From NCBI GenBank assembly GCA_003971905.1, contig RSEE01000174.1, positions 1-51,490 on the forward strand: 51,490 nucleotides of DNA. The letters are read 5' to 3'. Below are positions 1 to 41,558 of this stretch, in pieces. The notes beneath the pieces are model-generated. The model did no database searches. It had not been told where the DNA came from and saw only the letters and a list, made by a program, of their open reading frames with translations. The position numbers and the translations under genes are program-made. Source of the stretch: Moniliella sp. 'wahieum' (Eukaryota). Numbering within the stretch: the first letter of the stretch is position 1; each line of letters starts with the position of its first letter.

Positions 1-660
1 GAGAGAGTTATGCCGAGGCGATAGCGAGCTACCCGAAGGGGAGAGAGTTATGCCGAGGCGATAGCGAGCTACCCGAAGGGGAGAGAGTTATGCCGAGGCG
101 ATAGCGAGCTACCGAAGGGGAGAGAGTTATGCCGAGGCGATAGCGAGCTACCGAAGGGGAGAGAGTTATGCCGAGGCGATAGCGAGCTACCCGAAGGGGA
201 GAGAGTTATGCCGAGGCGATAGCGAGCTACCCGAAGGGAGAGAGTTTGCCGAGGCGATAGCGAGCTACCCGAAGGGGAGAGAGTTATGCCGAGGCGATAG
301 CGATACCGAGGGGAGAGAGTTATGCCGAGGCGATAGCGAGCTACCCGAAGGGGAGAGAGTTATGCCGAGGCGATAGCGAGCTACCCGAAGGGAGAGAGTT
401 ATGCCGAGGCGATAGCGAGCTACCCGAGGGGAGAGAGTATGCCGAGGCGATAGCGAGCTACCCGAAGGGAGAGAGTTATGCCGAGGCGATAGCGAGCTAC
501 CCGAAGGGAGAGAGTTATGCCGAGGCGATAGCGAGCTACCCGAAGGGGAGAGAGTTATGCCGAGGCGATTAGCGAGCTACCCGAAGGGGGAGAGAGTTAT
601 GCCGAGGCGATAGCTCGCTACCCGAAGGGGAGAGAGTTATGCCGAGGCGATAGCTCGCTA
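1..660. repeat. Tandem array of a 40-bp unit GAGAGAGTTATGCCGAGGCGATAGCGAGCTACCCGAAGGG, about 17 copies, running off the window start
   Basis: Directly visible. Units start at 1, 41, 81 and so on. Small indels occur mostly in homopolymers. The last two copies read TAGCTCGCTA instead of TAGCGAGCTA. Confidence 0.98.
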
Positions 661-726: not shown

Positions 727-793
727 CACCACCCCACCCTAACCCTCACCCCCCTCACCACCCCACCCTAACCCTCACCCCCTCACCCACCAC
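727..793 (+). repeat. C-rich tract with degenerate telomere-like CCCTAA/CCCTCA motifs, itself a ~29-bp tandem duplication
   Basis: caccaccccaccctaaccctcacccccct occurs twice. It has two perfect CCCTAA and several CCCTCA/CCCCAC, with the C-strand on +. Confidence 0.55.
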
Positions 794-889
794 CATGCCT
801 GACAACCCCCCGACACACCAAGACCAGGCGTCGCATCACAGTGAGAGTGGTAGGGTGGATAGCTACAGCCTTGGGCTACTCAAACTAAC

Positions 890-2653: not shown

Positions 2654-5038
2654 TGTGTTTGCCAAAAATGCGGTCACAGCGTCGCAGGTGGCGATGGATG
2701 CCTCTGATGACCAGCGCCTAGCGGTAAGCAATGTACGGTGCTCAAGCCTGGCAGCTGGATCCGAAAAGCAAGGAAGAGAAGGCTCGATGACGGGATGGAG
2801 TTGCTAGGAGCCTGTGGTGCTGGCCTGTTGAGATGTGGGATGGAGTGTGGTATCGACACACACAGTAATCCGGATTGCGAGGCATTTTTCTTCCGTCTCT
2901 ATCCCGTAGTGCCATGATCGACATGATCTGATCAACCTCCCTCGGGCTCCTTCGGCTGTGTCCCAAAGGGGTCTTCTGGGCAAGTCATATAATGGTTAAG
3001 CTCAAAACCAATCCCCCAAGTCGCAACCGTTGACAGGGGGTCTGATTCACGCGCTGACTTACATATTATGGGAGTGCGAGGCGAGACGCACCGGCAGAAT
3101 AAACGTTAAACGTGTTAAACGTTAAACGTTGATGCATGATGCATGATGGCTGCGTCCGAGCAGCGCAGCAGCGCACTCGTGATGTGGAATGGTACCGGCA
3201 CGGCGCTGCTCTGCGCCGCCCTTTCTGAGACATCACTCACGTCTCGTGCCCTTCCCGCCGGCACTATCAGTATACGCCACAACCTCTTCGTCCTGCCCTC
3301 AGGCAGGCCTCGTACACCATGCCCCAACGTGATGCATGTACATACTGTGCCTTCGTACTATCAACGTTCAACAAAGACTCTGTTGTGACGATGTGACGAT
3401 GCACGAGAACGGGGGCGGCCGAGCATCGGTACCTATATGTTACAGCACACGCATGGAAGCATCTCACACTGGTGCCGTAGTTGCTGGGGGGGTATATAGG
3501 GTCACATGTCACAGGCCTGTCATCCTCGTGGCGAGGGACATGCAGCGCAGGCTGGATAGCCTCTTTTTAGTGGTTGCAGCAGACTGTTGTCGGGACACCC
3601 AATAAAAAAGAAGGCCAAGCGACCGAGCGGAGAAGCAAGAGCCAACAGGCGAGTGTATACTAGTAGATGATTGATCTGTCTTCGAAGCAATGCACCGTTG
3701 CCCTTCTCGGCCGTCGTCAGTGGTTGGCGCTTGGTGTTACATGTTACATGTTACGAGCGGCGGCGGATCCGAGAGGGTCCGATCAAGATAAGGCCCGCCT
3801 GCTCTGCACATGCCCAGTAAAGCGTACTCTGCAGTCCAACCAAGTGTATTGATGGTTGGTTAAATTAGGTACGGTGGCACGAGGCGCATCCGCGCGACAA
3901 TAGTCGCCCCCGCCCATGTCCCAAGTCAGATGACCCAAATAAAAGGCCACCACGCTTCCTGTATCTTTGCGATTCGATGACTGTCGCCTCCGCTTCAGCG
4001 TCCTTTTCCTCTCTCAGTCGCACCTGCGGCGACCAACCCCTGTTTTGATGTGTCTTCCGTTCAACACCCCTTCTTGCTTCCGTTTCCCTTTCTTTTCATC
4101 TAGCCATCCCCGGGATGGTTGAAGGGGATCCTTTGCTCACCATCAATATTCACCCTCGTCCTCTCCGGCCTATCCTGTCCAACCCCTTCCCGTTTCCCAG
4201 CCAATTGATCAAATCAGTACAATTGCAGCCTCCTCTCCTCTTCGCTCCCATCACCTCTTCCGACCTTATCCTCCAGCTCTCCTTCCTTCCAGTCGCTCGA
4301 GCCCCCCTTCAGCTGCATCGATTCCCAGTCTCTGTCCGGTCTCAGTTTAGGCGGTATTTGCCCGCCAATTGTCCTCCCGTCCCTAAGTCCCGGAGGGTTA
4401 GACACATTCCTAACGCAGCCTTGCCACACGTGCACCGGCCCCACCATCGGCCGCTCCGCGTCCCTAGCTCCGCTCGGATCCACGAACATGCCCAAGCTCG
4501 AAACTGCCGTGAGTCGTCCTTCCGTCTCTAGGGAATGTATCTCACAACGCTGGGTGAGCCCCCTGGGGGGCCCGGCCGTGTTTGTTCGAACCAACAGCGT
4601 CGGCGCACCATTCGAGCTGGGTGGATCTGAGGATGAGTGGTGGCTCATCGTTCCCCAGGCAGTCCTCTTTCAGACGCGCACAGGTAGAGGGCAAGGCGGT
4701 GCACAGTGATGGAGAACGTGCGTGTGACGCTGGACGAGTTGGTGGTGGTAGCGGTTTGGTCTATTCGGTGGCGGCCGAGCCAATGAGACGGTGCAGCCCA
4801 CGCATGCATCGGTGCAAGTAATAAATAAAAGTTTAAACGTTTCAGCCAGCGGCGGTTGTTGCGCTGGCCTGGCGACGGATAACCGGTTACGGTAACCGGT
4901 AACCCCCATCCCAACCTGCCTGGCTCTGCCCAAGATCTGTTGTCTCGATTCTCAGCCTCCATTTCCCCTTCGGGTGCCTTCCCGCGCCTCACCTGCCATC
5001 CCCCGGCCCTCCACTGACCCTCTCTTCTGTGCCTTAAC

Positions 5039-5080
5039 ATCCCATCCCATCCCATCCCATCCCATCCCATCCCATCCCAT
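5039..5080. repeat. (ATCCC)n microsatellite, about 8 copies
   Basis: Directly visible immediately before the ATG at 5085. Confidence 0.97.
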
Positions 5081-5084
5081 TCCA

Positions 5085-6769
5085 ATGCCGCCCTTCCTCA
5101 TTCTGACCTGGTCTTGCAACAGCCGCTTGCCCCTCACCGCGTCGCTCTCCCCTATCATTACCCCCATCTCAACGCTCATCACGGTCATTCCGAGTTGCCC
5201 GTGTGCAAGTACAACATGGTGCTCTGTCTGATTTTTGCGTCCACGCTTGCGCACGCCGATGACAAATGTTGGTTCAACCTTGTGTCAGGCGTCTCCAAGC
5301 TTGTGCGGCCATGTCCAAGCATGCGCCCGCCATTTCCAAGTCTGTCCTTTCCATGTGCTTGTGTCTTTTTCACCAACCGCAACGTAGCGGCCTGCTTTCC
5401 CTATAGCATTCTCAAAGTGAATTGGTACCCACCGCTGAACACCACATATATGCATATCAACCCCTTGCCCCAAGACATACATCTAGATCTCCCCCAATTT
5501 GATTCGCCCGACCCACCCCAGGGCTACTTTTCTGCCACAAGCGTCATGACCTGGGCGTTTGCCTATGCCCTGCACCGCCTTGCTCGTGCACACCCGCTTT
5601 TCTATGCCGGCGACCTACGCCGCTGGTGGAAAGTGTCCAATGTGGCTGATTCGCATGACCCCCACGCCCGCCAACTCGCCCGCTACCGGCTGTTCCCACG
5701 TGGTACCTGTGCTTGCTACTGGTTGTCTTTGCCTTGCCATCCCCATGGTGCACGTGTACCACACCTCGGTACCGGTTTGGTCCATTGTGCTTGCCCTCGC
5801 GCTGGCTGCAATCTTCATTGTTCCAGTGGGCATTGTGGCGGGCCGGACGTCGGTGGAGTTGACGTGTGTGGAGCACTTGGCGACGTTGATTGCTAGTGCT
5901 TCGCTGCCTGGGCACACGACCATCCTTCCGCTCTTTCAGCTATGCTGCGCGGGGACCATCCAACAGGCGATGCTTACTGTGGCTGCTCCAAACTGGCAGT
6001 CTACTTTAAGATCCCACCACGGCTTACTTTCTATGTAATTGTGTGCTCCCAGTTGATATGCTCGGTGTTGCAGTGTGGAATCTGGGTAGGTTGGAGTTCC
6101 GATTCGCTGACGATCACTGAGGAAGCCAAACCGAGGGTTGTATGGTTGTACGATCCCGTATATTGGACTGGCGTTGGGCTTCACAAGAACGGCTTCCTGC
6201 ACCAATACAAGTGGACTCTGTACTTTTTTCTTATTGGCACAGTCGCCCCACTGCTCTTGTACCTTGCCGGACGCATGGCCCCTCACTTGAATCACTTGGT
6301 CACCTCCGCTCGATCCATTGGCCGCTCTTCTTTGGGGGTGTATCGCAAGCCACAATTTTTGCTGCGGTTTGCTGGACCGCCTGGTTTTTCTGGGGGGCTG
6401 TCACTCACCTACTTTTCTCCGTCGTCGGCACTTGAATTATGGATTGCGTACGCCCACTACTCTCTTCCTTTTGTATTGTTCCAAGGATGAATGTGGCTAA
6501 CGCTCTTCTCTAACAAAATCTCTGGATTGGTTGTTGACAGGATGAATTACATTCTTTCTGCCGCCGCTTCTGTGGGATGTTCGCTTTGTGCAGCCATCAT
6601 CACTGCCATGGAGTATCCTACAGAGGGTACTGACACCCGCTTTACCCGCTTCCTCAATCACTTCAGCAAACTTGGGCCCCAGAACGACTACGGAGATACC
6701 AAGGAAAAAGTTCTGGTCTGGCACGACACGTTTTTTCCCAACAGGAACGCGCCTTCCACCACGTCTTAG
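5085..6769 (+). CDS. OPT-family oligopeptide transporter; only the C-terminal half is recognisable (divergent or partial)
   Basis: Stitched motifs DPHARQLARYRLFP(W)WY, VPVWSIVLALALAAIFIVPVGIVAG, LIASASLPGH, KLAVYFKIPPRLTF and NYILSAA match OPT signatures (DIHARLM, KLGHYMKIPPR, NYVLSAALD). Confidence 0.8.
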
Positions 6770-7384
6770 TTGTCCCTATGCAAATTCAGCCGGAGTCTGT
6801 CGACAGATCTCAGCGTCAACGACGTAATCCTTTCCCCCCTGCCTTTTTTCTACCTGCCCGTCAAATCACGATGGCGTCAGAGGTGTCCAGCCAGACCCCC
6901 TGGTCCTGCCTCTTTCCACACACACCCCACCACCATCCCTCGCCACCGTTCCACCATAGTAAGTGCAACAGGTCCAGGCAATGCTCGTGCGAGCACCTCT
7001 CGCGGACCCAGCAGTATCGCAGGTCCAGTTCACACCCGCACGTGAACAACAAGCTAATAGGTTGTCAGGCAGCCGAAATGGACGAGCTGTACGTGGACGA
7101 ACCCCCCCCCCGCACCAATCTGGCATCGCCCCCCGCCTGCATCCTGACGGTCCCTGAGAGACACGGCATATCACGGTGAAAGCGCGCAGGCAAATGATCC
7201 AGAAAAGATGTCGGTCAAGATCCCACAAACGACGCACAAAGTCACGCCAGTGCCACCGGGTAAGAATTGTCGAATCCATTAGCATGTCGGCTTGACTGCA
7301 CGTTTTGCTGATGGTGGTCAAGAGTCCACCGCTCTCGGCGCCTCCCCCACTAGATCCACCATCAACAGTGCCTTATCCAACATC

Positions 7385-8680: not shown

Positions 8681-9005
8681 GGCGAAGCTGCCAAGCGTTG
8701 CGGCACAATTTCATCCGATGGCACGTCCTCGTGTCACATGTCACATGCCACATGTCGTCATGCATCATGCATCATGCATCATGCATCATGCATCATGCAT
8801 CATGGGCTTAGTTGAGACAAGAAGCCACACTCTTTGTGTTGTAAAAATAGAGATCATGCACATCATGTCGTAACCGTCCTGTAACAGCACACAGCACTGC
8901 GACATGTGCCTAGCGCGTAGCACCAGTCATTCCAAGTACAAATACACCACGATTTCCACTACCAAGTGTCCATCTCTCCCCCCCTGTACCAGCATAAGCA
9001 CACTG

Positions 9006-10414
9006 ATGTCCATCTCTTCTGCTCGGCTCTCCACTTCCCTAATCCACATCGACAATCCTGCTCACGCGCCTCACCCACCTCATGGACCCAGTGTGGGCGC
9101 CCCGGTGGCCCGCCTCTTGTCACCTCCACCACTTCGCGCACCGCACCCATCCACCGAGCTGGGTGCGCGCCTGGCGTACGAGGACGTGGACTGGCACGGC
9201 GCGAGATCGACGTGTACTCGCGGTACGACAATGAAACGCGTCACCGAGCCGAGCAAGTGCTGGGGCGGCTGCACGGCCCCGACAGCCATGCTCTTCTCTA
9301 CGCTTCGGGGCTCGCATCTGTCAAGCTGCCATCGCCCATTTCAGTCCCTCTGTGGTGGCCATTCGCAAGGGATACCCTGGTGTGCATGGTGCACTAAAGA
9401 TCTACGCTGGGCCTGCCCCTCCCTGAGCGTCATCGATCCTCGATAGTCCATACCCCACTGTTTCCGACGACCAAACTGGTCCCATCCCAGGCACTGACAG
9501 TTCCGTGGTGGCCTGCTCGTCTGGGTTGAGACGCCGCTCAACCCCACAGGGGAGGCACGCGACATCCAGGGCTACGCGAATAAGGTTCGTTTATCCCTGT
9601 CCATTTCACCCCGCGTCGCGTTCTTTGTACTACTGAGGCTTTCTCTGTGGACTGACATTTGCAACGCACTATGCCGGGGTTTTCAGGCTCACAAGGCAGG
9701 AGGCTATTGTCGTTGATTCCACCTTTGCACCACCTCCCTTGCAGAACCCTTTTGCGCAGGACGCTGATATGGTGATGCACAGTGCATCAAAGTACTTGGG
9801 CGGTCACTCGGACTGTCTGATTGGCGCCCTCGTAACCCGCTCTCAACCCGTCTGGAACGCTCTCTTTGAAGACCGAATCGACATGGGTGGTGTGCCGGGG
9901 AACCTCGAATCCTACCTGCTCTTGCGCTCGTTGCGTACACTCCCTGTCCGACTACGGCAACAGGCCGCATCGGCACAAGAGTTGGCCCAGTGGTTGTATT
10001 CTCTCACCCCACAAGGTGCGAGCAAGCTGGCTACTGAGGACAAAGCTCTGGGCCATGGCAAGGTCGTGGATTGGGTGTTCCATGCTTCGCTCCAGCCCTG
10101 GACGGAGACCACGACGCCCTTTGGCCGCCCGCTTGAATCCCTGGGTTTGACCCTTCTCAAGGCCAGATCCAAGCTGGCCATTCGCCTGCTTCTCCATCCA
10201 CTGCACCAAGCGCAGCGTGGCTGATAACCTCGCATTTACCACCGAATTCTTCACCCCTGCCACATCGCTGGGCGGCGTGGAGTCGCTGATGGAACAACGC
10301 GTCGTTGTCAACCCCAGCGAAGACTGGGGGGTGGTACGTGTGTCGGTCGGGCTAGAGGCCGTGGAGGACCTCAAGGAAGACTTGCGCAAATCTTTCCTCA
10401 AGTTGCTCCAGTGA
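9006..10414 (+). CDS. Cys/Met metabolism PLP-dependent enzyme (cystathionine gamma-synthase/lyase-like)
   Basis: Motifs VYSRY, LLYASGLAS, VWVETPLNPTG, VVDSTFAPPPLQNPF, PLP-lysine motif MHSASKYLGGHSD, LLLRSLRTL, ATSLGGVESLMEQR and VRVSVGLEAVEDLKEDL. Intron 9585-9686. Confidence 0.93.
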
Positions 10415-14309: not shown

Positions 14310-17300
14310 AAAAGAATCTTCTCCACTCATGCGCGGGATGTGCGCATCGTTTTGGCCGGGGCTACCCGCTGTAAGAATTGAGTTTCATGGCATTGTGGTA
14401 GTAGCGAGAGAGAGCCAGAAGGAACCTTATCCATGACGCGGACTTTCAGTAGTGCTTGCTCTTCTTTAGGACTCCATCTGATTCTGCCGACTACAGCGCA
14501 TCGAGTTCGTGACACTGCCGGTCACAGCTTTAGCGGCTATCCGGAGCACCTGGAACCCTTTTCAACTGGTCCGACAACCTACGTACGCCGCTCCTATCTC
14601 GGAGGGTCTAAGCTGCGGTCTTTGCACGCAGACAGCCACCCAAACCAGAGGGTCTCTGCCGCGCCTCTACGCCCGCTCGATTCAACCAGGATCTGAGGGA
14701 GGACCTAACGTACGAGGCTCCGATTGGCCTGTCCAAGGGTTTACACCCCTAAACTACAGGGGTGGGCCCCACCTCGGAACTCCCTCCAGGACAGTTTCCT
14801 TGCACGACAGCAACATCTTCCCGGATTTCGTCTTCATATACGATTGGCTCGGGGGTATTGCTAAGTTCGACCGTCGAACGCCAATGCACGCCGAATTTGG
14901 CCCACAAGGTTCGAGCGGCTACGTCCGAGTTGTGGTATGTCACCCTGGTCCTGCGCGGCTTGCCGTTTTCTAACCCACGTAGCGACCAGGAGTACCTTCG
15001 TCCTTTGAAACCGGAACGAGGAGTGACTTTCTGATCGCACACCTCTGGATTTGGGAGATCTCCCACTGGACTAGTGGCAGGTGCTCAGGCGGCGGACGCG
15101 GGGCGGTATCGTCCACCTCGTCAAGCGGAAGAACGGGACGAGGAAGCAAACGATCAGGGCTCGGGGCAGAGTTCTCAACTGGCTCTGCTTGAATGCGGAT
15201 CTCGGCCGGCGTTTCGGTTACCTCCCCCAAGCCCGGTGCATCGGTAGTCGGGGGCGCGACAGCCGCCGTATCGTCTGCATCTCGTCTGACCCGTCGGGCT
15301 CACGTGGCTCCCCCACACCCCGAACTATCCTTCAGCAACGGCATGACAAGAGTGTCGGCGGGAGTGGAAACGGATGCGGTATGGGAAACGGATGCGGTAT
15401 GGGAAACGGATGCGGTATGGGAAACGGATGCGGTATGGGAAACGGATGTATCCACAGAACTAGAAATACCCATGCAGGCACTACTGCACTTGGTTGTGTC
15501 GAGGCGCGAAGGAGCGATTCAGCTCCGCCCACCACCCATTCGGTGGCGAAGACGGCGACGAGCAGCCGTCCACAGGCTCGCTGGTCAGGTCGATCATGTC
15601 GGTAGCAACAGGAGTATGGGCGACTGTAGGGAAAGTAGTAGGGGAAGCAGCAGGGGAAGTGGAAGCAGCAGGGGAAGCAGAAGCAGAACTAGAAGTGGAA
15701 GTGGAAGTAGAAGTGGATTCGTCGGCCGAAACCCAAATAGGGGAAAGAGGTCCCGCACTCGCTTGCATTGTGACTGGTGGCAGTACGGGGGGGTTGGGGG
15801 ACGCGCGTGGCGTGGGGGGGTGGGAGGTTGTGGGCGGCGCCACAGACGAATTGGGCGCGGGCGGGAACGTCCCTCGTTCCTCCTTTCCCCTTGCACCCCC
15901 ACATCCACTCCCACTTCCTCTTGCGCTTGCGCTTGCGCTTGCGCTTGCGCTTGCGCTTGCGCTTGCTCTTGCACGCACACCCGCCTGCGCTTGATCAGGA
16001 AGCGCCGAGCGCCCAGCGGCACCACGCGATGGGAGGTACTGCCCCCCGCCGAGTGCGAGTCCTGGGCAGCGGCGCGGGCTTGGAGTGTGGCATGCAGTAT
16101 CTTGCACGCCGCGTGGTCGGCCTGGTCAGAAAAGAGGAAACAGACGGTCAGGGCTCGAGGTTGGATTTGCATACAGGCACAACACGGGGGCAGGGAGGAG
16201 GGGTTAAGCGCACGCCGTAGCTCAAGGGAAAACGCACCCATCCGAACCAGGAAACCTCGAGTCGACGCAACAGCTCCCTTGACGCGAGCTGGCGCACTTC
16301 GTCTGTCGATAGGCCCGCGATCAAGCTCTGGCCAGCGTGCGGATACAGCGGGGTACCTCCTTGCTCGTGACCGCTCGGTCAGGGCAAGAGAGCGCGTGCC
16401 AGTGGACGAGGCGTAGACACCACTGGGTGGGTCGACTGGCGCCCCCTGAGGGCAGGTCGGGCGGCCTGTCACCGGTTCCTCCACCATCAACAGCAAAAAG
16501 GGGCAGCCGGGCGTAACGCAAGTGAACGTGTGCTGCAGCGGGTTGGCGGGCGTTGGTGGTTTACCGTGTCCGGTGCCAATGTGTACGACCGGGAGGAAGT
16601 GTCCGAGGGTTGGAGGCACCACAACTTGCCGGGATGGTGGATGAAGAGCGTCGAGGCAACATAGGCCAAGGCCGCTTCGTAACTGTCAAACCGGCGATCC
16701 GTGAGCCACGCAAAGTCTGGCGCCGGTGCCATAGGCTCGGTACCGCGCTCGGGCGCGGCGTGGGGCAGCGGGAGCGGCATCATCGCCGACTGCATGTCGG
16801 CGGCGACAGCACGCCGTTTCGGGCGCTGCGGAGCACATTCGTTGCGCAGGTGTATGGATTCTGGAGACAGAAGCCGCACGGCCCGGGAGAAGAAGGAGGT
16901 CAGTGGGCGCGAATGGGGATGGAGGAGGACACGCACGGTCCAGGTCAAGGGGTGTTGGAGCACGAGTGTGGGCGTCATGTGCAGCAGCGTGTGGTCATCG
17001 AGGCGGGCGAGCGCGGCTAACACCTCCTCGCGCCACCCAGCGCGGCGCGCCGCTGGCCAGTGCGGGCAGGCAGGGGCAGGCGTCGGCGTGCGCAGTGTAG
17101 GTGCGAATGGACCACCCGCGGGCGGGGGTCGTCGGTGGCGGCAGGTGGCGGATGGGCGGCGGGGCGATGTGAGGGAGGACGAGGAGGAGGAAGGGGCAGT
17201 CGTGGATGCGGCAGCTAAAGGCGGTCTGGATGGGGCCGACGTGGGCGGAAGGTTGGTAGAAAGGGCCCAGGCCGGTGCGGGAGTGCGTCGGGTGGCGCTT

Positions 17301-25168: not shown

Positions 25169-26585
25169 ATGAACCTGCTCCCGTTCGAATCAGTTCCCCT
25201 TCAGGGGCTTGCCCAATTCGTCCTGGGTCTGGCGATGCCGTGCCTACGGTTGATTTCGGGCTTGGCCCAAACGGCACCCCGATCGGGGTCCGTTGAACAA
25301 GAATCCCTTGGCCCAAACGGCAGCCGGCTGGGGCCTCCGTTGAACAAGAAGCCCGTCGCATTCGAGAGAGACTCGGAAAGCGTTTGCCAAAAGTCTCCGA
25401 ATATGGACCCCACGGCCTGGTCCAAAATCTCAATAATGTGGGACAACCCTCCGAAATCAAGGCGGCCGAGGCGGCTCATCAGCAGCAGCAGCAGCGGGAG
25501 TGGATGTTACGGCATCTTCCGAATCCCTATCCCACAACGGAAGAAAAGATGGAGTTTACGAAGGGCCCGCATTCCACGGCCCCGAACAACTTTCAACGTA
25601 CAAACGGAGGCGATGAGACGGGATTGGAAGGTGGAGCATTGAACAGACTGCACAGTCACGGGAAGAAGCCCGCCACATCGATCGAGTCGGTTGACATTTG
25701 GTTCAGAAACAGCCGCACACGGTCGAGCTGGACCAAATTTTTCGACGCTTATGCTCAAAAGGATTTGGAGATATGGACCGCATCATCACTCAATGCTGGC
25801 TGATCCAGACCTTGCCTCGAATGTAGAAGTGGTGATGACGCTCTGAAGGGTGTTCGCAAAGAACACTGTGGGGCCTTCAACGCATCCATTGACACGATGC
25901 CTTGGGGTTCCAAGCGCAGAAAGACAGCATCCGGAAATTCGGCGTCGGCCAAGTCCACTCATCGGGGGAACGAAGTGGTGGATGGATCATCGACCGCACG
26001 CAAGTGCTCACTGACTTTCGAGCCATGGTGCGATACATCGCCATGCCCAAGGACGAACACGTTCGCGATTGGGTTGATAAAGTAGCGAAAAATGGCACGG
26101 GAGATGATCCTGGCTCGCATTTAGGATTCCAATGCGAGGAGAATCGGGCCATGTGCCGGATTGGATGCTCACGTCCTCCGCCCCCAGACTGTCTTTCGAA
26201 CCGTTGCAACCTCGTACGTCTCTCTCTTTAATTGTTATTGAACACCAACAGGTCATTGACATTTTCTTGTAGTCCCTACTTCAACAGAGCCCCCCACATT
26301 GACTGACGGACCGACTCGTCAACATCGAACCTTAGCAGTACCACTTTGACTCCTGCGGTTCAGTGCTCTCATTCCAGTGGGGGCTCAAATGTGGCGGCGA
26401 ATGCTACGCCTGGGGATTTCGGGTGGTCAACCCAGTCCGTGAGCCAAATTCGCACTTACCAAGAACTTGGATCTTCCTCCGGCGGACTTTGGAAAGTTTG
26501 CGCTATGATCGACGGATTGGCCGAGCGAGGTGGAGCGGAGAGGTTCATTCTGACATTTTTTCCGAAAGAATTAGATATCAACTGA
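25169..26585 (+). CDS. TALE-class HD1 homeodomain protein resembling smut mating-type bE
   Basis: WMLRHLPNPYPTTEEK..(insert)..SVDIWFRNSRTRSSWTKFFDAYAQKD resembles, from recall, bE NPYPT..WFINARRRSGW. Downstream FRAMVRYIAMPKDEHVRDWVDKV resembles bE W..MISWIKYGVKEKVGDWV. Probable intron about 26214-26272; 3' end uncertain. Confidence 0.8.
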
Positions 26586-35778: not shown

Positions 35779-37241
35779 CTCTATATAAACAAGAGGAGCA
35801 AAAGTAAGGACAACAGGAACAAGCAGGAACAACAGGAGTACGTAGCGGCTAGGAGGAGCGACGGCCGGTGATGTCACCGGTGAGCTGTTCGCTCTGCGTC
35901 TCCATGACGTCAGGTATGACGGGAGTCCGACGGCCCACGTGGGTTAGTAGCAACGCTGCGTGGGCAGCTGTTGCGTCGTGGACTTCGCGCCCGCAACGCG
36001 CTCGGCGGGTGTCGTGGGCAGCAGACCAGGCGATACGAGCGGTAGCGAATGGAGTGGTGGTGCGGAGGGGATGGAGTGGTGGTCGCCCCACAGGAGGGAC
36101 AAAGAGAAGGACCGCAAGGGGGAGGTCGCGCGCATGCGCGAGCTGCCCGCTGCGCCCCCAGTGCATATGGGGCGCACTGCGCCAGCCTGGGCAAGCGATC
36201 TATCTACGTCACACACAGCCTGTCGCTAGTGCAGTTCCACTCATGCATCATGCACCATGCATCATGCATCATGCATCATGGCACCTTCAAGCTTCAAGCT
36301 TCACGCGTCACGCGTCACGCGTCACGAGCCCCTGTTGGCGAACCCTGTGCAGTGACGCCATGCTGGATACACGAGCCGAAGTATACGCTGTATGACCGTG
36401 ACAAGCGCGTGACATGTGACAGCCAATCAGAACAGACACAGAGGGTGAACCAGGTTCTCGAGCAGCACCTTCGTTGCTACCTGTGGACGCGCAGCAGTCT
36501 AACTGCGTTGATCTTCTCTAGGCCGTAGCTCGGAAGACGCGTGTCGCACCCAGATGCGGTATCGGACCTACGCTGCGGAGATCAGCATCGCACCGAGGTC
36601 GTGCTTTCAGTTGGTCAACGGGTTTTTGGTCCGTCGCGGGGGCGGTACTTACCCGATGCCTCTTGGTTCCCTCTTGTTTCCTCCCACGAAGAATGGTCTT
36701 GCCATTTCCCCGTCTCTGACAGCACCTTGGTCTCCCGTCTAGCCCCGACTGTTTCATCCAAGAGAATCCGGCTACATGCTTGGTGTCAGTAATTCACCCT
36801 TCTCGAACGTCACCATTCCACAGCCGTCAATAGACGCCACGTGTGAGTGGGGGGAGGTAGAACACAGATCAGATTTCCAAAAGACATCATATACAAAGGC
36901 AACATTTTCTTCACGGGTACACTAATCATCGGTACATACATTCTTGGCAAACCTTTACGCTTTCGCCCACACACCATTCAGGTGCCATGTGTGCGGGGAG
37001 AGAGGTCAACAAGACACCAGTCGTCCCTTGGGGAATTCGCACATCCCGATACACGAGCCCACACGTGCACAGTACAAAGCAAGAAACCGAACGGGAGTGC
37101 AAGGCCCGATCTCTTGTCTTGCTTCCTCGATTGGCGGGGTCTCGCACCACTAAGGGAGACCTTATTGTGGCACGTTTCCCTCGGCATCAGGTCGCGTCGG
37201 ATCGTACAGGTTAATACCCTCGTGTTCTCACAGGAGCAGGG

Positions 37242-39544: not shown

Positions 39545-41558
<2,014 letters not shown>

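Follow-up and report, generated by a model that had tools for sequence, protein, structure and literature searches.

The window analysed here, 51,490 nucleotides of nuclear fungal DNA, opens inside a tandem array of a 40-bp unit, and a degenerate telomere-like tract lies a short distance inward of that array, facing outwards. With a probability that we put at roughly 55%, the array is a real subtelomeric (telomere-associated) minisatellite in a basidiomycete related to Tilletiaria. It would then be located distal to an old, degenerate TTAGGG-type tract, and a noisy long-read contig would stop inside it.

A 40-bp tandem array at the start of the window

The unit is repeated head-to-tail on the + strand over bases 1-660. 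The first unit starts at base 1, sixteen units are complete and unit 17 is cut after 31 bp, leaving a clean inner boundary at base 660. The preliminary description had placed a 40-bp array at the end of the sequence, and the array is indeed real and begins with the first base of the window. Tandem Repeats Finder called bases 1-654 as a single array (period 40, 16.6 copies, 95% matches, 4% indels) with a score of 1185, while the runner-up array in the window scored only 166. When the 40-mer was searched with up to 3 mismatches, 12 occurrences were found, all on the + strand and all within positions 1-629 of the window, against 0 in 100 shuffled controls. The 118-bp higher-order period that Tandem Repeats Finder also reported is a by-product of the indels of the array.

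Each unit contains 16 G, 8 C, 11 A and 5 T. The preliminary description had given the same numbers of G and C, and it had remarked that the + strand is G-rich, a polarity opposite to that of a canonical left telomere; this is correct, as the strand that reads outwards is C-rich. A telomerase-made long repeat was rejected on this polarity and on the 40-bp length; to our knowledge, the known yeast telomerase repeats are all shorter than 40 bp. Formation of a G-quadruplex was set aside as well, each unit having one single run of at least three Gs (read off the sequence), and so was a coding role for the array, in which open frames exist solely through the stop-free unit.

In a unit-by-unit alignment, 5 of the 17 copies are perfect, and the departures from the unit comprise 12 deletion and 2 insertion events, nearly all differences between units being 1-bp indels, as well as 4 substituted bases. 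Ten of the 14 indel events, counted from these alignments, sit in the CCCGAAGGG(G) stretch, which comprises the main single-base runs of the unit. The substitutions are confined to the innermost units 16 and 17 (590-660, + strand), both adjoining unique DNA, where a change of GA to TC turns TAGC-GA-GCTA into TAGC-TC-GCTA. This amounts to an exact reverse complementation of the 10-bp palindrome, with its centre inverted, and the change is the one real variant of the array. An evolving array would be expected to show such a variant shared by its two innermost units, which an adapter concatemer would not. The GAGAGAG run of the unit bears what we take to be only a faint resemblance to a sequencing-adapter stem.

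Indel noise and the searches for the unit elsewhere

The essential poly(A) polymerase gene of the window (PAP1, 39560-41533, + strand) matches its Tilletiaria homologue over the full length, and it is out of frame over stretches of ~240 bases while its length remains unchanged with respect to that homologue. Similarly, a cystathionine gamma-synthase-like gene (9074-10411, + strand) leaves the frame and returns to it, again with no change of length relative to its homologues. Frame errors without a change of length are the signature of an unpolished long-read assembly, and since both genes carry errors of a similar kind, the indels of the array are probably long-read noise too. With an assembly that carries ~2 indel errors per kb, readings of the window that are based on open reading frames are therefore unreliable.

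The 14 indel events in 660 bp of array represent a density ~10 times that of the genes. Where a contig tip is covered by fewer reads, a high indel density is to be expected, and here it suggests very low read support, as would be the case if the array were a technical artefact, that is, the end of a chimeric or concatemeric read, or an amplification product, retained at the contig tip from one or a few reads. The lack of any independent copy of the sequence in metagenome, prokaryote, viral, plasmid and phage collections or in the full-text literature points in the same direction: contigs of metagenomes, prokaryote genomes and viruses did not contain a single exact match to a 29-mer of the unit, no public sequencing run was listed for bases 1-1500, and four 18-mers of the unit were absent from the full-text literature. 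On the other hand, a blastn search of bases 1-200 against plasmid and phage records gave no match, which argues against an artefact, as do the clean inner boundary and the variant that the two edge units have in common. We consider an artefact very improbable.

A search of Rfam yielded nothing at gathering scores and, with relaxed scores on bases 1-1300, one chance-level snoRNA match (E 0.13). No tRNA was found.

A telomere-like tract next to the array

A unique spacer of 66 bp (661-726), with no similarity to the unit, separates the array from a tract at 727-794 (- strand) made of 2.4 copies of a 29-bp unit. Read outwards, on the - strand, this tract is a string of TGAGGG, TTAGGG and TGGGG, the first two of these being especially abundant. 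The sequence CCCTAACCCT occurs in only two copies in the window, at 737 and 766, both of them in the tract. Over bases 733-802, 36 of 70 positions of the outward strand are covered by TTAGGG-like hexamers, while at most 12 are covered anywhere else in the window on either strand. The tract, ~70 bp inside the array, is the sole telomere-like one in the 51 kb, and its orientation is that required of a telomere at a left chromosome end. We read 727-794, from its sequence, as a worn remnant of a canonical telomere, and the case for a present or former chromosome end near the start of the window rests mainly on this tract. The preliminary description had left a choice between a telomeric cap, a subtelomeric satellite and an assembly break in an interstitial satellite. 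The tract, which it had not mentioned, favours the second of these, and the cap and the interstitial satellite rank below it.

Base 1 is presumably the end of a contig, as a randomly placed cut would seldom land in an array of 0.66 kb, and this end would be near that of a chromosome. No canonical copy of (CCCTAA)n is present at the start of the window; this absence, together with the fact that the evidence comes from one end of one sequence, speaks against a subtelomeric array, and a true (TTAGGG)n cap is assumed to lie beyond the assembled part. In the subtelomeres of Saccharomyces cerevisiae, an X element, an internal telomere tract and a Y' element follow one another, and by analogy the array may have been added outside a former telomere. 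Slippage during replication, unequal exchange between sister chromatids or break-induced copying at the chromosome end could have multiplied its 40-bp unit and kept the copies alike. The edge units would escape such homogenisation, and we propose that this is why only units 16 and 17 differ.

Alternatively, the array could be an interstitial minisatellite within a chromosome, possibly where an ancient fusion left a telomere relic behind, the contig breaking on a long or variable array. The stop of the contig in the array without a telomere cap is compatible with this, and apart from the tract nothing ties the window to a chromosome end: a Pfam scan of 225 of the 228 open reading frames of at least 100 aa (the 3 inside the array being excluded) returned matches among which there is no telomere-linked helicase or other subtelomere marker. 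If the array were internal, however, the outward-facing tract 70 bp away, the sole telomere-like one of the window, would be a coincidence. Moreover, an array of 0.66 kb should not break a long-read assembly. The latter point also weighs against a subtelomeric minisatellite, since an assembler of long reads should be able to read through it, and the stop of the contig in the array must require a much longer array, failed coverage or the end of a molecule. Altogether, we hold an internal position to be unlikely.

The origin of the unit was also sought in the window. Its best local scores against the flank were 23 and 17, compared with 19.3 +/- 2.5 in shuffled flanks, and those against the rest of the window were 25-26, none of them significant. 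Derivation of the unit from neighbouring DNA was set aside for this reason, and the lack of similarity to flank or window is a further point against the subtelomeric reading. The same Pfam matches of the 225 open reading frames contain no transposase or reverse transcriptase, and a transposon end was set aside on that account.

Phylogenetic position of the host

The Pfam matches of the window include DUF3712, a piece of an OPT transporter, a Cys/Met PLP enzyme, poly(A) polymerase, an RRM protein and a multicopper oxidase. Among named poly(A) polymerases, the nearest comes from Tilletiaria anomala, with 74% over the N-terminal domain, compared with 68-69% for Microstromatales species. A 21-row PAP1 tree joins the window to Tilletiaria anomala with support of 99/96, and it sets Sympodiomycopsis and Parajaminaea apart in a distinct Microstromatales clade (98/98). 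The organism would therefore belong with Tilletiaria anomala and outside Microstromatales, a placement that is indicative only, as it is derived from a single gene and a noisy query.

Comparison with non-canonical chromosome ends

Short repeats made by telomerase were, until June 2026, believed to be present at all fungal chromosome ends. Brejova et al. (2026, PMC13234504) describe four Microstromatales yeasts that are devoid of TERT, Tpp1 and any TTAGGG-like DNA, and whose chromosomes end in arrays of unique 41-178-bp motifs, 1.6-21.6 kb long. These arrays are mostly specific to one end, are BAL-31-sensitive, and are accompanied by circles and by TERRA-like RNA from the G-rich strand. Microstromatales are, in that account, the one fungal group known to cap its chromosomes with such arrays, and beyond this article and its preprint we found no other report in the literature of such ends in basidiomycetes.

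The array of the window resembles these ends in several respects. Here too, a unique motif of moderate length is repeated in tandem at the tip of a nuclear sequence; the host is likewise a yeast-like member of Ustilaginomycotina, and the 40-bp unit adjoins the published range, the smallest Microstromatales unit being 41 bp. Our unit shows no similarity to other known motifs, and dissimilarity between species is reported for theirs as well (PMC13234504). These likenesses raise the possibility that the array is itself the physical end of the chromosome, a true non-canonical telomere kept by recombination (ALT-like), which would have arisen independently in the Tilletiaria-related lineage over a TTAGGG remnant. 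That the sequence opens directly with the array, and not with a CCCTAA cap, is in keeping with this, and so is the telomere relic just inside the array, which fits the scenario of old repeats capped by a new motif that is discussed for proximal and distal repeats in PMC13234504.

Several differences, however, argue against a true cap. The PAP1 tree places the organism outside the order, and for its nearest named relative, Tilletiaria anomala, the article of Brejova et al. (PMC13234504) reports canonical repeats, Est2 and Tpp1, that is, telomerase, which conversely favours a subtelomeric minisatellite, in whose case the host would be a telomerase-positive fungus. The outward strand is C-rich here (C16, G8), whereas the Microstromatales motifs are G-rich outwards, with transcripts from the G-rich strand; in their motif list, in which motifs are given in the outward direction, all rows examined start with GG or GGG (PMC13234504). 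TTAGGG-like DNA persists 70 bp from the array here, but its erasure is described as complete there. The assembled array measures 0.66 kb, compared with 1.6-21.6 kb in the published cases. Four 14-mers of the unit had 0 occurrences in the supplement of PMC13234504, and the motif is absent from Table S4. A true cap thus seems decidedly unlikely to us.

The subtelomeric minisatellite that we prefer finds a parallel in telomere-associated repeats of telomerase-positive fungi. One of these, UTASa of Ustilago (Mycosarcoma) maydis, is mentioned in the discussion of PMC13234504. As in UTASa and the X-Y' ends of yeast, the repeats are found on the distal side of an internal telomere-like tract that has the same orientation, and recombination at chromosome ends is expected to expand the repeats. 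Those elements, though, are kb-sized and often helicase-encoding, whereas here the repeat is a 40-bp non-coding minisatellite. Telomeric tandem repeats of the linear mitochondrial DNA of Tetrahymena and the composite telomeres of Meloidogyne, both named in the same discussion (PMC13234504), also consist of tandem repeats tens of bases long that are not made by telomerase; they belong to other genomes and organisms and have no sequence relation to our unit, the terminal position of which is putative.

The significance of the array depends on which of these readings holds. As a subtelomeric minisatellite, the more likely case, it would be an ordinary feature, useful as a marker of the chromosome end and of a spot in the assembly where reads are needed. 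As the physical end, it would mean that non-canonical telomeres maintained by recombination arose a second time in Ustilaginomycotina, independently and outside Microstromatales, here with reversed strand polarity and with mini-hairpin motifs on the 5'-ending strand. The case would have been caught early, while an eroded TTAGGG tract is still present 70 bp beneath. A relative outside Microstromatales with an array atop a worn telomere tract would then show how the switch begins.

Mini-hairpin motifs of the unit

The preliminary description had pointed to three palindromes in the unit, GCC-GA-GGC, TAGC-GA-GCTA and CCC-GAA-GGG, and all three are present exactly as given. At least three short hairpins with any loop were obtained in 4.0% of 20,000 dinucleotide shuffles of the unit, and three hairpins with GA or GAA loops in 0.01% of 20,000, although the latter pattern was defined post hoc from the data. 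Folding of the DNA under a nearest-neighbour model was no better than that of shuffled sequences for one unit (z = +0.81) or for two units (z = -0.36 on the + strand and +1.28 on the - strand), the full span of z being -0.88 to +1.28; since the model includes neither 2-nt loops nor the sheared G-A fold, nor any bonus for mini-hairpins, it is unable to settle the question of the hairpins.

According to the review PMC13037366, the class of mini-hairpins is defined as GCGNAGC or GCGNNAGC, with CC-GG stems accepted; CCGAAGG is named there as a mini-hairpin of the ssiA origin signal, and GCGATAGC is tabulated as a mini-hairpin variant with a Tm of 71 C (Table 1). Both are found in every unit, in unit 1 at 33-39 (CCGAAGG, the core of CCC-GAA-GGG) and at 18-25 (GCGATAGC, which the preliminary description had overlooked), and only on the + strand, so that each unit has two motifs that fit the class by sequence on its G-rich strand and none on the other. 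The earlier statement on established mini-hairpins consequently applies to CCC-GAA-GGG, but not to GCC-GA-GGC and TAGC-GA-GCTA, which fall outside the class (PMC13037366) because they have no loop base between G and A. GCGATAGC overlaps these two GA-centred palindromes, and its predicted fold would compete with them; the folds of the unit are in all cases predicted ones.

At least two motifs of the class were found in 2.5% of 50,000 dinucleotide shuffles of the unit, and the rest of the window has 0.06 such motifs per 40 bp per strand. Judged by sequence, the enrichment of the unit in mini-hairpin motifs is modest and is no proof of function. The pair of motifs on the G-rich strand of each unit may promote slippage and loop inversion, a contribution that is dispensable for the explanation of the array as a subtelomeric minisatellite.

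Other features of the window

The first genes inside the array encode a DUF3712 protein (1183-2803, - strand) and an OPT oligopeptide transporter (4900-7200, + strand). Both appear only as pieces in several frames, from either pseudogenization or assembly noise. Further inside, the open reading frame at 25297-25800 (+ strand) matches the first half of a TALE/KN homeodomain (Pfam PF05920, E 5e-7) and, on this similarity, may belong to a mating-type homeodomain gene; among 36 nearby open reading frames, none was recognized as its partner.

The window also contains short repeats of other kinds. Perfect or near-perfect arrays of 7-bp units are located at 8758-8804, 36241-36280 and 36301-36326, with TCATGCA in 6.7 and 5.7 copies and TCACGCG in 3.7 copies, and both units follow the pattern T-N-A plus a 4-bp palindrome. 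In addition, a perfect 18-bp repeat (GGAAACGGATGCGGTATG) is present in 4.6 copies at 15366-15448, within a long GC-rich open frame.
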